The notes beneath the pieces are model-generated. The model was not told where the DNA came from. It saw nothing but the letters and a program-made list of their open reading frames with translations, and ran no database searches. This document shows, in pieces, positions 20,469 to 58,844 of a DNA stretch of 64,000 bases. Origin of the DNA: Actinomycetota bacterium (lineage in GTDB: Bacteria; Actinomycetota; Thermoleophilia; Miltoncostaeales; Miltoncostaeaceae); the NCBI GenBank assembly GCA_046095485.1, contig JBJTJN010000059.1, forward strand, positions 6,565-70,564, given 5' to 3'. Numbering within the stretch: the stretch's first letter is position 1; every line of letters starts with the position of its first letter. Made by a program: the position numbers and the translations under genes.

Positions 20469-22268
20469 ATGGCCCCGGGCGGCGACCTCAGCGCGGACGA
20501 GCGCGCGCGCGTCGCGCCCTATGTGACCGACCCCGAGGGCCCGGTGTTCGCGCTGCGCGGCCTGCCCGAGGCCGTGAAGGGCGCGCTGTTCGCCCGCTAC
20601 TCGCGAAGCCCCAACTCGGTGCGGCGAATCCTGCTGGAGGAGTTCCTGCCCGATTCCGCGGGAGCCCCTCCCGGAAGCACGGAGAGCGTGACTGGCACCG
20701 GAACGGTGCACGTGACTGGCACCGGCACGGTGCCTGTCACGGGGGTTCCGCCAGAGGCCCCCTCCGACGTAGGCACCGACCGCGCCCGGGACTTCTTCCA
20801 GCGCGTGCTTGCCGACTACGGCGACGACTCCGTGGCGCAGCTCGGCGGCGCCCACGTGGCGATGGAGGGCGTGAGCAACGTGCTCACCAAGGTGATCGAG
20901 TGGGGACGCCTGGCGTCGTACCTGGAGCAGTCCACCCGCTACGTGCCCTACACCGACCAGGTGGACGGCCGCTGGAAGTACGTGCGCCCGCCCGGCATCT
21001 CAGCCCATCCCGAGTTGCTGGCCCGCTACGAGGCCGTGCTCGACGACGCCTTCGCCACCTACTCGCGGCTGTTCGAGGCCGTGCTCGATCACCTGGTGGC
21101 CGAAGACGACTCGGGCGAGGACGACGCCGCGGCCCGCCGGGCGTTGCGCGCCCGCGCGCTCGATGCCGTGCGCGGCCTGCTGCCCGCGGCCACCACCGCG
21201 AACCTGGGCGTGTACGCGTCGGGGCAGGCGTGGGAGCAGCTGATCATCCGCCTGCGCGCGCACCCGCTGGCCGAGGCGCGCGAGGCCGGCGACCTGGTGC
21301 TCACCGCGCTGCGCGAGGTGATCCCCGACTTCCTCACCCGGGTGGACCGCCCGGACCGCGGGGAGCGCACGGGCGCGTACCGCCGGGCCACCGAGCAGCG
21401 CGCGGCGGCGATGTGGGAGGAGCTGGCCGCAGGCGCAGAGAGCGTGACTGGCACCGGAACGGTGCCTGTCACGGGGGTTGGGGCCACGGGAACCCCGGTG
21501 ACAGTCACCGTTCCGGTGACAGTCACCCCCTCGGGTGCTCCGTCCGCCACCCCTGGCGCCCCGTCCGCGGCAGCTGCGGTTCGGCTGGTCGACCATGAAC
21601 CCGATGGGGAGCGGCGCGTGCTTGCCCATGCGCTGTGGCCGGAGTCCGGGTGCACGATCGATGAGGTGCGCGCCCGGGTGGACACGCTCGACGGCTCCGC
21701 GGTGCGCAGCGCGCTGGCGCAGTGGGCCGCGGGGCGCGCCGATCGTCGCGAGCGGCCCGGGCGCGCGCTCGAGGCCACCTCGTACCTGTTCGAGGTCACG
21801 TGCGACTACGGCGCCTACCGCGACCTGCAGCGCCATCGCATCCTCACGCTCGAGGCCCAGCCGCTCGGCGCCGACCTCGGGTGGGAACCGTCGCCCGACG
21901 TGCAGGCCGCAGGGCTGGCCGACGAGTTCGCGCGGGTGAACGAGGCCTCGGCCGATCTGTGGCGCGAGGTGCTCGCCGTGGTGCCGGAGGAGGCGCCCTA
22001 CGCGGTGACCATGGCGCACCGCCTGCGCTTCGCCATGCGCATGAACGCCCGCGAGGCCATGCACCTGATCGAGCTGCGCAGCCAGCCCCAGGGCCACGCG
22101 GCCTACCGGCGCGTTGCGCAGGACATGCTCGTGGCCATCCGCGACGACGCCGGGCAGCCGGGCATCGCCGATCTCATGGGCTTCACCGACATGTCGGGCG
22201 AGGGCGGTCGGCTGGCGCAGGAGCGGCGCACGGAGGCCCGGCGCACCGCTGATACCGTGGATTCCTGA
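20469..22268 (+). CDS. tandem-domain ThyX (Thy1)-like flavoprotein, divergent from canonical thymidylate synthase ThyX
   Basis: ORF 20469..22268. The N-half has LFARYSRS and WGRLASYLEQSTRYV (the S..S.RY part of the ThyX signature, with RHR lost). The C-half has YRDLQRHRILT (RHR retained, S..S.RY lost). Two V/T/G/P-rich insertions are encoded by palindromic DNA repeats. Confidence 0.7.
   Translation: MAPGGDLSADERARVAPYVTDPEGPVFALRGLPEAVKGALFARYSRSPNSVRRILLEEFLPDSAGAPPGSTESVTGTGTVHVTGTGTVPVTGVPPEAPSDVGTDRARDFFQRVLADYGDDSVAQLGGAHVAMEGVSNVLTKVIEWGRLASYLEQSTRYVPYTDQVDGRWKYVRPPGISAHPELLARYEAVLDDAFATYSRLFEAVLDHLVAEDDSGEDDAAARRALRARALDAVRGLLPAATTANLGVYASGQAWEQLIIRLRAHPLAEAREAGDLVLTALREVIPDFLTRVDRPDRGERTGAYRRATEQRAAAMWEELAAGAESVTGTGTVPVTGVGATGTPVTVTVPVTVTPSGAPSATPGAPSAAAAVRLVDHEPDGERRVLAHALWPESGCTIDEVRARVDTLDGSAVRSALAQWAAGRADRRERPGRALEATSYLFEVTCDYGAYRDLQRHRILTLEAQPLGADLGWEPSPDVQAAGLADEFARVNEASADLWREVLAVVPEEAPYAVTMAHRLRFAMRMNAREAMHLIELRSQPQGHAAYRRVAQDMLVAIRDDAGQPGIADLMGFTDMSGEGGRLAQERRTEARRTADTVDS
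20682..20747. repeat. hairpin repeat inside the thyX-like ORF, site 1 (about 1.5 units)
   Basis: GAGAGC GTGACTGGCACCG-GAA-CGGTGCAC GTGACTGGCACCG-GCA-CGGTGCCTGTCAC GGGGGTT. Read in frame as ESVTGTGTVHVTGTGTVPVTGV. Shares 28 + 21 identical nt with site 2. Confidence 0.8.
21438..21530. repeat. hairpin repeat inside the thyX-like ORF, site 2 (one unit plus one inverted unit)
   Basis: GAGAGC GTGACTGGCACCG-GAA-CGGTGCCTGTCAC GGGGG ... CCCCGGTGACAGTCACCG-TTC-CGGTGACAGTCACCCCC. Read in frame as ESVTGTGTVPVTGVGATGTPVTVTVPVTVTP. Confidence 0.8.
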
Positions 22269-35663: not shown

Positions 35664-35735
35664 AACCCCGGTGTCAGGCACTTAACCGAGGGTCACAGAA
35701 CTCGCGCGGGTTGGTTGGGTGCCTGACACCGGGGG
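35664..35735. repeat. hairpin/TIR element, type B, copy 1
   Basis: AACCCCGGTGTCAGGCACTTAACC ... GGTTGGGTGCCTGACACCGGGGG. The first 16 bp of the arms are perfectly complementary; extension to 22 bp needs two G.T pairs. 25-nt loop. It fills the gap from the stop of the lipoprotein gene (CTA 35736-35738) towards the helicase start. The first 26 nt are identical to 58756-58781. Confidence 0.8.
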
Positions 35736-40143: not shown

Positions 40144-40189
40144 CCCCTGGTGAGAGTCACCGGGCCCGTTCGGTGACTGTCACCGGGGG
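40144..40189. repeat. hairpin repeat, intergenic copy downstream of clpP
   Basis: CCCCTGGTGAGAGTCACCG-ggcccgtt-CGGTGACTGTCACCGGGGG. Arms of about 19 bp with one central mismatch. The arm sequence is the same as the inverted unit in the thyX-like gene (21495-21526). It lies 10 nt after the clpP stop and may act as a terminator. Confidence 0.8.
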
Positions 40190-40211
40190 TTGCGCCCCTA
40201 GCCTCTCCCGC

Positions 40212-52304: not shown

Positions 52305-53045
52305 TCAGTGGAATGCGCGGGCCAGCTTCTTGCGGTACTCGGGCACCAGGGGGTGACTGTCACCGAGCTCACGGAACTGACCGATGAGCATCTTGCGCAG
52401 GTCGTCCTTCAGCACCTTGTCGCCGGTGGTGGTGGCGGCATCCACCAGGCTGGCGAACGCCTGCTGCCAGTCCTCGCGCTCGAGTGCGGCGAGGCCGGCC
52501 TGGACGTCGGGCACGTCGCAGCCCATCAGCCTGATGCGGGCCCTGAGGCCGGCGGCGATGGGGTCGTGCTCGGCGGGCGCCAGCACCTCGTCGGCCTCCT
52601 CCAGTTCGCCGTCGTCGATCAGCAGATGCGCCAGCGCGATGCGGGCGTCGGTGCGCCCGGCGTCGCGGAAGATGGCCTCGCGCAGGCTGTCGGCATCGCC
52701 CTCGGCCACCAGCATGTCCACCTTGCTCGGCACCAGCTTGTCGAGGAAGGCCTCCATCTGCGCGGGCGCCACGAGCCCCACGAACTCCTCCACCACCTCG
52801 CCGTTGCGGAACGCCTTCACCGCCGGGATGCTCATCACCTGGAACATCTGCGCCAGCCCCGGGTTGGCATCGATGTCCACCTTGGCGAGCACCACGTCCC
52901 CACCGCGCCGCCCGATGGCGTCGTCGATGATGGGCCCCAGCTGCCGGCACGGCCCGCACCACTCGGCCCAGAAGTCGACGACCACCGGAACCTCGTGCGA
53001 CCGCTCGATCACATCCGCCTGGAAAGAACCCTCGCTCACGTCCAT
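52305..53045 (-). CDS. thioredoxin-domain protein with C-terminal TPR-like domain (YbbN/CnoX-like)
   Basis: ORF 52305..53126, with the start at ATG 53045 (TAGTCT 7 nt upstream). VVVDFWAEWCGPCRQL (intact CGPC), VMSIPAVKAF, then a helical Ala/Leu/Asp-rich C-terminal half. Confidence 0.85.
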   Translation of the reverse strand: MDVSEGSFQADVIERSHEVPVVVDFWAEWCGPCRQLGPIIDDAIGRRGGDVVLAKVDIDANPGLAQMFQVMSIPAVKAFRNGEVVEEFVGLVAPAQMEAFLDKLVPSKVDMLVAEGDADSLREAIFRDAGRTDARIALAHLLIDDGELEEADEVLAPAEHDPIAAGLRARIRLMGCDVPDVQAGLAALEREDWQQAFASLVDAATTTGDKVLKDDLRKMLIGQFRELGDSHPLVPEYRKKLARAFH

Positions 53046-53048
53046 GCG

Positions 53049-53188
53049 CGGGAGACTAGAGGGGCGGCTGGCCAACCGGCAGTCGGGCACGTCGCGAAAC
53101 GGTATGGCCATTTGCGGGGGCCGCAAATGGCGATCCCCGGCTCCGGTTGCCCGACTGCCGGTTGGCCAGCGACCCCTCTAGTCTCCCG
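53049..53188. promoter_or_regulatory. mirror-symmetric divergent promoter region (41-bp inverted arms plus a central 11-bp inverted repeat)
   Basis: Left arm 53049-53089 (CGGGAGACTAGAGGGGCGGCTGGCCAACCGGCAGTCGGGCA) against right arm 53148-53188, complementary at 39 of 41 positions. Central GCCATTTGCGG-GGG-CCGCAAATGGC at 53107-53131 is concentric with the arms. Both start codons lie 3 nt outside the arms. Confidence 0.8.
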
Positions 53189-53191
53189 GCC

Positions 53192-54886
<1,695 letters not shown>

Positions 54887-56075: not shown

Positions 56076-58755
<2,680 letters not shown>

Positions 58756-58757
<2 letters not shown>

Positions 58758-58844
58758 CCCCGGTGTCAGGCACTTAACCGAAGGGCCCGCTCCGGTGGGC
58801 CCTTCGCGTTTGGGGGCTCGGTAACGGCCCTGACCCCGGGGTTC
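58756..58844. repeat. hairpin/TIR element, type B, copy 2 (carries an internal terminator-like hairpin)
   Basis: AACCCCGGTGTCAGGCACTTAACCGA, identical to 35664-35689. It begins inside and directly after the acn stop codon TAA. The right end GGTAACGGCCCTGACCCCGGGGTTC is a degenerate inverted copy. The element fills the convergent gap up to the IMPase stop (58849). Confidence 0.75.
58780..58805 (+). terminator. terminator-like hairpin downstream of acnA
   Basis: GAAGGGCCC-gctccggt-GGGCCCTTC, followed by GCGTTTG. A perfect 9-bp stem. Confidence 0.5.

Follow-up and report, generated by a model that had tools for sequence, protein, structure and literature searches.

Palindromic repeats that reside in frame within bacterial proteins have been described for several kinds of element. 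Rickettsia palindromic elements (RPEs; Ogata et al. 2000, 2002), in the accounts given of them in PMC10969869 and PMC3733652, are AT-rich and about 100-150 bp long, code each for a conserved peptide and occur in Rickettsia only. Intragenic copies are also known for the GTAG and CGTC repetitive extragenic palindromes (REPs) of Opitutus, Thauera, Thioalkalivibrio, Xanthomonas and others (Di Nocera, De Gregorio and Rocco 2013, PMC3733652); they are often found in genes of DNA metabolism and are argued to sit in flexible linkers or loops, and Actinobacteria are not mentioned in that paper. In-frame copies of the type of miniature inverted-repeat transposable elements, or MITEs, have been documented too (Delihas 2007, PMC2759123; reviewed in PMC10969869). 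Here we examined a 64-kb stretch of DNA from a bacterium of the Miltoncostaeaceae (Actinomycetota, class Thermoleophilia; contig JBJTJN010000059.1), called the window below, in which a thyX-like gene carries palindromic units at two sites of its coding sequence. These segments are most probably in-frame copies of a dispersed, GC-rich, REP-like palindrome family of the Thermoleophilia. In judging such a case to be rare, the first-pass annotation of this DNA was partly right: in-frame REP-like repeats are known well beyond Rickettsia (PMC3733652), the precedent it had named, but we found no description for Actinomycetota. Our search for in-frame palindromic elements in Actinobacteria or Thermoleophilia, made in an incomplete library, gave nothing relevant and no paper with the arm sequence.

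The host gene, thyX, is an essential thymidylate-synthase gene. Pfam Thy1 (PF02511) matches its 599-residue product as two stretches (E = 1.6e-36), residues 110-282 can be aligned to the Mycobacterium ThyX structures 3gwc and 2af6, the annotation of an Actinomycetota metagenome-assembled genome (MAG) includes an identical protein (P0001), and the closest named relatives belong to the Thermoleophilia and the Miltoncostaeaceae. The anatomy of the two inserts agrees with what had been described from the letters. Stretches 756 nt apart share 28 identical nt (GAGAGCGTGACTGGCACCGGAACGGTGC, at 20682-20709 and 21438-21465) and another 21 (ACGGTGCCTGTCACGGGGGTT, at 20727-20747 and 21459-21479), and the unit is the hairpin GTGACTGGCACCG-GAA-CGGTGCCTGTCAC, with 13-nt arms and a single central T.T mismatch. 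Site 1 does contain a partial tandem duplication, which is 24 nt long, site 2 does include a unit in the opposite orientation (CCGGTGACAGTCACCG-TTC-CGGTGACAGTCACC, 21495-21526), and the open reading frame (ORF) of 20469-22268 is uninterrupted by stops through every hairpin copy. In general terms, the unit has two 13-nt arms that follow GTG-N-C-N-G-N-CAC-CG and are separated by 3-5 nt of loop, often within AACCCC...GGGGTT, and its size (29 nt, with one central mismatch) is that of a REP in the broad sense. We searched the window for the core motif GTGACWGKCACCG with at most one mismatch and found 15 matches where 0.87 were expected, a number reached by none of 100 shuffles. Site 2 is the longest inverted repeat of the whole window (55-nt arms, 80% complementary, 11-nt loop). 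Its two REP-like units lie in inverted orientation and form one larger hairpin. Folded as RNA, site 2 reaches -77.6 kcal/mol (z = -4.98 against shuffles) and site 1 -44.3 kcal/mol (z = -4.10). A test for over-represented 10-mers across the window gave no usable signal, as it was masked by the GC-rich background. The Rfam 15 scan of the entire window gave no match at the gathering score, and E-value scans of the elements returned merely generic hairpins resembling miRNA precursors, far below threshold.

Were these segments added to the protein, or do they belong to it by descent? An alignment of 33 ThyX orthologues (A1) was made and the DNA of both sites was extracted from 93 orthologous genes; the metagenome listing of thyX relatives consisted almost wholly of distant ones (41-53% identity), and the close ones were fetched singly. 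In A1, VTGTGTVPVTG-like segments are found at one site or at both among relatives of ~76-93% identity, orthologues a little further away hold other short repeats, and most of those at 75% identity or less hold none. Equivalent V/T/G/P segments are missing at both sites from all 79 orthologues at 44-59% identity. Their site 1 measures 12-16 residues, often VGDLDxxGDxxxDATV, with longer forms in L133 (27 aa) and L148 (44 aa), the site-2 segment is mostly 21-24 aa long and 32 at most, and the best stems have 4-11 bp, L148 again being the exception. Expanded loops are restricted to a clade at 73-94% identity, where site 1 has 15-42 aa, site 2 has 27-70 aa and the stems reach 13-29 bp. The short loops of the 79 distant orthologues indicate that the short state is ancestral and that the segments are additions, and the reading of the units as insertions, already proposed in the first-pass annotation, thus agrees with both the empty sites and the further copies described below. 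Within the clade, the site-1 unit is missing from L201 and L004, and L114 and L003 lack these units at both sites. The ThyX of Miltoncostaea marina (P0071) is likewise free of inserts. We considered misassembly as the source of the inserts and rejected it as unlikely, since they are present in separate assemblies from JGI, ENA, Logan and NCBI. Orthologues of these independent assemblies have the thyX copies in common; the copies are old and are no recent insertions. We also noted the metagenomic L148 (48% identity) in its own right: its 44-aa site-1 segment, LAQSGAVVSTRLSVDDGGGETPPPSPP..., contains a 13-bp stem in an unrelated lineage, and to judge from the sequence this loop may have expanded independently of the 73-94% clade.

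Pfam, the structural match and the AlphaFold2 model (A1; mean predicted local distance difference test score, pLDDT, 70.7) agree with the earlier annotation, which put the V/T/G/P segments into a loop of the N-terminal part and into the linker between the domains. Both inserts lie inside intervals which the model gives as coil without secondary structure at pLDDT below 50, residues 65-96 and 325-366, and the confident neighbours are helices 51-59 and 103-117 around the former and helix 299-323 and strand 370-376 around the latter. Peptides predicted from the inserts include SVTGTGTVPVTG and TPVTVTVPVTVTP. At site 1, an ancestral N-terminal loop of ~15 residues would have been enlarged by ~27 disordered, V/T/G/P-rich residues, and at site 2 a linker whose aligned segment has ~22 residues in distant relatives would have gained ~40 of the same kind. 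Could such runs have been selected as flexible peptide linkers, their palindromy being a by-product of codon choice? The codon pairs GTSACS (V-T) and GGSCCS (G-P) are inherently self-complementary, and the segments are located where a flexible linker would be useful. Nevertheless, they are missing from the distant orthologues, the 28 nt shared by the two sites are identical at third codon positions as well, identical DNA is found between genes elsewhere and is read as GDSH in other proteins, and in related genes the residues change (T/S/P, V/D/G) while the pairing stays. An ancestral linker is largely refuted by the stem covariation and by the empty distant orthologues, and we regard it as very improbable. 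Concerning the protein itself, we observed that the first ThyX half contains WGRLASYLEQSTRY at residues ~145-160, in which the Ser/Arg-Tyr part is present and WGR replaces RHR, and that the second half retains QRHRIL at residues ~452-460. The canonical ThyX motif appears divided between the halves, and this arrangement of motifs suggests that the tandem protein is a pseudo-dimer in which each pair of halves forms one composite site.

The second body of evidence comes from outside thyX. We scanned one genome per species for the 18-nt pattern AACCCCSGTGWCAGKCAC, all counts being lower bounds. Among the matches listed were more than 109 stretches, concentrated in a few Thermoleophilia MAGs of ~70-72% GC: JAGWYY with at least 17 loci, CAIYRJ with at least 12, JAURGT (Miltoncostaeales) with at least nine and SXZC with at least six, plus several Gaiellaceae. 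By our own estimate, chance would produce this pattern about 0.04 times in a genome of 3 Mb, whereas a single MAG has 17 loci or more. Further copies of the unit therefore exist outside this thyX, mostly intergenic and some in frame. Units of the form AACCCC-GGTGWCAGKCACC... recur in several Thermoleophilia MAGs, chiefly just downstream of genes. The family has three variants, which grade into one another. The A type is GGTGACAGGCACC-loop-GGTGCCAGTCACC and the B type is AACCCC-GGTGACAGTCACC-(3-8 nt)-GGTGACAGTCACC-CC, and in thyX these two have 29-48 nt and ~70-75% GC. The C type consists of AACCCCGGTGTCAGGCACTTAACCG, a semi-conserved centre of ~23 nt and CGGTTAAGTGCCTGACACCGGGGTT; it spans ~55-95 nt with inverted ends of 23-25 nt, and 22 complete copies have arms of 23 nt. 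The A and B units and the 22 aligned C-type copies begin with (A)ACCCCGG... and end with ...CCGGGGT(T), and in none of them is there a GTAG or CGTC end tag. The B-type unit of site 2 is intergenic in L011, L018, L022, L038, L095 and others, and the A type is found between genes too. Many copies abut stop codons. Of 53 two-arm elements, in a sample of loci that is biased, about seven are coding in frame and about 45 are not. In this sample, the dispersal is that of REPs in the broad sense: many copies, mostly extragenic and often 3' of ORFs.

The window itself holds three such elements, at 35664, 40144 and 58756. The first-pass annotation had called them related and intergenic, which they are, as none of 35664-35735, 40144-40191 and 58756-58843 is crossed by a frame whose codon-position GC is of the coding kind and which has real flanks at either end. 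The element at 35664 has an orthologous copy at L001:20689-20760, and its left flank recurs at copies in L106 and, reverse-complemented, in L034; that at 58756 has an orthologous copy in L082. The centre of the 58756 element is a GC-rich hairpin resembling a terminator (GAAGGGCCCGC-TCCG-GTGGGCCCTTC, followed by GCGTTTGG). As a separate observation on 58755-58815, this central hairpin with the GCGTTTGG behind it looks like an intrinsic terminator, and the element may serve as the terminator of the upstream gene or may have captured it.

Could the palindromes instead have arisen on the spot, through slipped replication and template switches in a loop of low complexity that evolves fast, with their intergenic likeness due to the mutational bias of GC-rich genomes? 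The arms are indeed made of simple self-complementary half-sites (GTGAC/GTCAC, GTGTC/GACAC, GTGCC/GGCAC), tandem arrays of arms in variable number occur in the thyX genes L197 and L004 and in a FadB-like protein, different lineages have different palindromes at one site, and target-site duplications are not evident at the thyX junctions. Such an origin does not explain why the identity reaches past the arms into flanks, AACCCCGGTGACAGTCACC...CACCCC being common to thyX and to intergenic and other-gene copies in several MAGs, or why the 18-nt pattern is so hugely over-represented in particular genomes. The arm variant GTGCCSGGCAC of L201 is likewise found both in its thyX and at one separate locus. 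We therefore consider a purely local origin quite unlikely.

Membership of a dispersed family is also indicated by other proteins which contain the repeat. We looked for ORFs whose codon-position GC pattern is that of coding DNA on either side of an element and found in-frame copies inside the DEAD domain of an Lhr helicase (L025), upstream of the GT87 domain in a GT87-family membrane protein (L059, L026) and between the ECH and 3HCDH domains of a FadB-like fusion protein (L032). These hosts read the repeat DNA as NPGDSHRSVTVTP, GDSHSDSH or GDSHHAGSVTVT (GDSH.../NPGDSH...), in a frame that differs from that of thyX (VTVT; TPVTVTVPVTVTP). Among 120 FadB-like orthologues, the insert site holds zero to five GDSH/GDRH units or other short repeats, and the 633-aa form with no repeat is the commonest. 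Other candidates did not qualify as hosts. In L089 a distance of 70 nt separates the arms and the peptide context, HRVRVTVTP...GVTVTS, resembles normal protein sequence, presumably that of a class IV aminotransferase-like enzyme, so that we put the match down to chance; in L095 and L023 the codon-position GC pattern is weak. How easily could such DNA become part of a protein? In six-frame translation, the A and B units are free of stops in four of six frames, which makes in-frame survivors easy to get, and insertions that were out of frame or brought a stop were presumably removed by selection. In the full C element, four frames contain stops and only two are open, which fits the occurrence of the short forms alone inside genes.

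The units in thyX have continued to change. The site-1 unit is orthologous in L001, L194, L195, L072, L196, L198 and L199; the A-type unit with its flanks is also present at site 2 of L194 and L200, and the B unit at site 2 of L194, L195 and L200. Throughout the clade the site-1 flanks GAGAGC and GG[G/C]GGTT are conserved and the arms vary by lineage: GTGACTGGCAC / GTGCCTGTCAC in the window, L001, L194, L195 and L072, GTGTC[A/T]GGCAC / GTGCCTGACAC at site 1 of L196 and L198, GTGCCTGGCAC / GTGCCAGGCAC at site 2 of L196, and GTGTCTGACAC on both arms in L198 (site 2) and L199 (site 1). We examined the 13-bp stem in 18 aligned units (A2). It is paired in 91.9% of cells, compared with 84.3% in shuffles (none of 500 reaches the observed value) and 25-44% with a slid partner. 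We see double changes at pair 11:33 (AU 10, UA 4, CG 2), pair 15:29 (GC 12, AU 3, UA 2) and pair 20:24 (GC 14, CG 3); the second of these includes the change from G:C to T:A which the first-pass annotation had pointed out in the inverted unit. As the paired changes replace residues non-conservatively (T becomes S or P, V becomes D or G), it is the symmetry of the nucleic acid that is kept and not the peptide. Sites 1 and 2 share right flanks which are specific to the lineage, GGCGGTTGACGT in L198 and L199 and GGGGGTT in the window. This points to exchange of sequence between both sites by gene conversion, and on these flanks we base the suggestion that the two sites evolve in concert. The 24-nt duplication of site 1 is also present, diverged, in L194. 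Site 2 of L001, a relative at 86-94% identity, is the window sequence minus exactly 72 nt (21457-21528; 24 codons) between ...GGCACC and ...GTCACC, and half an arm remains. From such comparisons, length changes at both sites look like the product of slippage between arms.

More questions are raised by the possibility that it is the structure which is selected. The folded thyX mRNA or DNA might be functional, in ribosome pausing between the two ThyX halves, in protection or processing of the transcript or in the binding of a regulator, the repeats being no more than its raw material. The folds are very stable, stem pairing is maintained by double changes in spite of the residue replacements, and the units persist in orthologues down to ~80% identity. 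In addition, different palindrome families occupy the identical two sites in other lineages: both sites of L197 hold GGGGACAGTCCC-AGCGCT-GGGACTGTCCC units, with nine arms altogether, and L004 has seven GGGGACAGACCCC / GGGGTCTGTCCCC arms at site 2 only. We did not find either family in the ~16-20-kb flanks of its own gene. Each lineage would then have recruited, at both thyX positions, whichever palindrome family its genome carries. If true, this would account for the costly stem covariation, for three families at the same two sites and for the ~52-fold enrichment of arms in thyX over its flanks described below. On the other hand, the hairpins are dispensable, as the remaining half arm of L001 and the members of the clade without units demonstrate, and they are absent from all 79 distant orthologues. 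Repeats also occur, in variable copy number, in the unrelated Lhr, GT87 and FadB-like genes, and gene conversion can restore pairing without selection. Selection of a functional fold appears unlikely to us, and recruitment of local families to two selected positions equally so.

Several observations nonetheless weigh against in-frame insertion of a dispersed repeat. Across 12 syntenic loci, thyX contains 53 arms in 20.3 kb, compared with 11 in 219.6 kb of flanks, a ratio of ~52-fold which is inflated because some loci were picked for inserts visible in A1; simple random insertion followed by tolerance predicts no enrichment. A comparison of filled with empty orthologues shows no evident target-site duplication or direct repeat at the junctions in thyX, no recent presence/absence polymorphism was found for the intergenic copies, and no transposase or parent insertion sequence (IS) turned up in the 64 kb or in the 8-kb MAG fragments, which were never screened for RAYT transposases (PF01797) or for IS elements. 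Mobility is thus deduced from distribution only. Copy counts are lower bounds and the loci studied were picked for matching, and several intergenic copies are at orthologous positions in different MAGs, which suggests that the repeat family may be old and largely immobile. The 'compensatory' changes, too, could stem from conversion by other perfect copies and not from selection in place. We still favour in-frame copies of a dispersed repeat family, for which the following course of events can be proposed. Most copies would come to rest just downstream of genes, and a minority would be fixed within genes where the protein tolerates extra residues. The anatomy of the inserts, their repeat family, the empty sites, further host genes, predicted disorder and stem covariation are taken as shown. 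We infer that the units arrived in thyX by insertion, that they turn over by gene conversion and slippage, and that they affect the enzyme little or not at all. Once inside the gene, they would behave as unstable palindromes which expand and contract by slippage between arms, and the two sites would exchange sequence by gene conversion, with double changes keeping the stem paired.

Table. Positions of the thyX gene, its inserts and the related intergenic elements in the window
Feature	Position	Strand	Description
Host ORF	20469..22268	+	599 aa, tandem two-half ThyX-like FAD-dependent (flavin adenine dinucleotide) thymidylate synthase
Site 1 insert	20682..20747	+	GAGAGC flank, partial copy, complete A-type hairpin, GGGGGTT tail; encodes ESVTGTGTVHVTGTGTVPVTGV
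Site 1 partial copy	20688-20711	+	24 nt
Site 1 complete A-type hairpin	20712-20740	+	GTGACTGGCACCG-GCA-CGGTGCCTGTCAC
Site 2 long hairpin, REPIN-like	21425-21545		A + B units; from folding and inverted-repeat scan
Site 2 A-type unit	21438..21479	+	GAGAGC, hairpin, GGGGGTT; encodes ESVTGTGTVPVTGV
Site 2 A-type hairpin	21444-21472	+	GTGACTGGCACCG-GAA-CGGTGCCTGTCAC
Site 2 spacer	21480..21490	+	GGGGCCACGGG, 11 nt; apical loop of composite A + B hairpin
Site 2 B-type unit, inverted	21491..21530	+	AACCCC-GGTGACAGTCACC-GTTCC-GGTGACAGTCACC-CCC; encodes TPVTVTVPVTVTP
C-type element	35664..35735	.	AACCCCGGTGTCAGGCACTTAACCG, 23-nt centre, TGGTTGGGTGCCTGACACCGGGGG; adjoins stop codon of minus-strand gene
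B-type element	40144..40191	.	CCCCTGGTGAGAGTCACCG-GGCCCGTT-CGGTGACTGTCACCGGGGGTT; begins 9 nt past stop codon
C-type element	58756..58843	.	Left arm intact, right arm degenerate; first AA completes TAA stop of upstream gene

Two other palindromes of the window deserve mention. At 52352-52364 there is a lone perfect 13-nt palindrome, GGTGACTGTCACC, which equals one B-type arm and has no partner arm nearby; it could be a relic or a product of chance, and its context is presumably the 3' part of a minus-strand gene. The ~150-nt gap between divergent genes at 53043-53194 is itself a nearly perfect palindrome (47-nt arms, 91% complementary) with a small central hairpin at 53101-53137, for which Rfam gives sub-threshold miRNA-like noise alone. 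It is bounded by the CAT at 53043, a possible minus-strand start, and the ATG at 53192, a possible plus-strand start.

The labels of some MAGs which contain the family were also puzzling. Contigs labelled 'Bifidobacterium breve' or 'uncultured Bifidobacterium sp.' (L005, L045, L074, L077, L039, L070, L093) have 70-72% GC, whereas true B. breve has ~59%, and the L045 element lies upstream of a gene which starts like that of the Thermoleophilia-like L040. These labels look wrong, and we do not count Bifidobacterium among the hosts. Similarly, the JAGWYY01 MAG is labelled 'Acidobacteria bacterium REEB500' (L009, L034, L082 and others). It has 71.5% GC and shares intergenic elements of the window with matching flanks or loops (35664 with L034, 58756 with L082), and it is probably a close Miltoncostaeales relative of the window organism and no acidobacterium.

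What do these repeats add to the known cases? They extend protein-coding palindromes to free-living, high-GC and mostly uncultured Actinomycetota (Miltoncostaeales, Gaiellales), and their occurrence there means that the phenomenon is not tied to reduced intracellular genomes or to Proteobacteria. In one essential gene they provide a natural series of empty, single, duplicated, dimeric and partly deleted copies, which can be used to study how palindromic DNA enters proteins, turns over and is tolerated there, and to separate selection of structure from gene conversion. Concerted evolution within one gene, stem covariation in a coding sequence and the recurrent occupation of the same sites by different families are the features which stand out. 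There is a practical side as well, as the repeats inflate protein lengths, create low-complexity segments and can mislead the annotation and alignment of Thermoleophilia MAGs.

Among described systems, the thyX units resemble several. With RPEs, in the accounts cited above, they share a dispersal of palindromes both between genes and in frame in functional, often essential genes, and a peptide placed in surface loops or linkers compatible with the fold; as for RPEs, the ORF stays open, the segments are predicted to be disordered and empty sites exist in orthologues, translation being predicted. They differ in that the thyX-family units are much shorter (29-48 bp), have ~70-75% GC, are read in at least two frames and belong to free-living Thermoleophilia, and in that their stems covary and the copies at two sites within a single gene appear to evolve in concert. 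Size and composition set them apart from RPE-1 to RPE-10, and homology to these families is implausible. The C type looks like MITEs such as ERIC and RU-1/2/3 (Delihas 2007, PMC2759123; PMC10969869), with ~70 nt, terminal inverted repeats of 23-25 nt and a semi-conserved centre, whereas the thyX units fall far short of 70-300 bp and the full C element is not the genic form. REPINs (REP doublets forming hairpins; Bertels and Rainey 2011, PMC3116915) are mobilised by RAYT transposases; a RAYT is an IS200/IS605-like Y1 transposase, present as a single copy and as a rule with the repeats at its flanks. The likeness to REPINs is that at site 2 an inverted REP-like pair makes one long hairpin and that intergenic copies which occupy orthologous positions in related genomes speak for long persistence by vertical descent; the REPIN literature found by our search does not mention Actinobacteria. 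Similar too are the GTAG/CGTC REPs, palindromes of 20-40 bp which lie mostly 3' of ORFs and sometimes supply the stop codon, like the 58756 copy here. Inside genes these occur as singles, dimers and clusters encoding ~10-80 residues, and many of their hosts are DNA-metabolism genes, as are thyX and the Lhr helicase; the difference is in the ends, which here are AACCCC.../...GGGGTT and lack the tag. The thyX inserts are therefore an actinobacterial case, from the Thermoleophilia, of REP-like repeats residing in frame in proteins.

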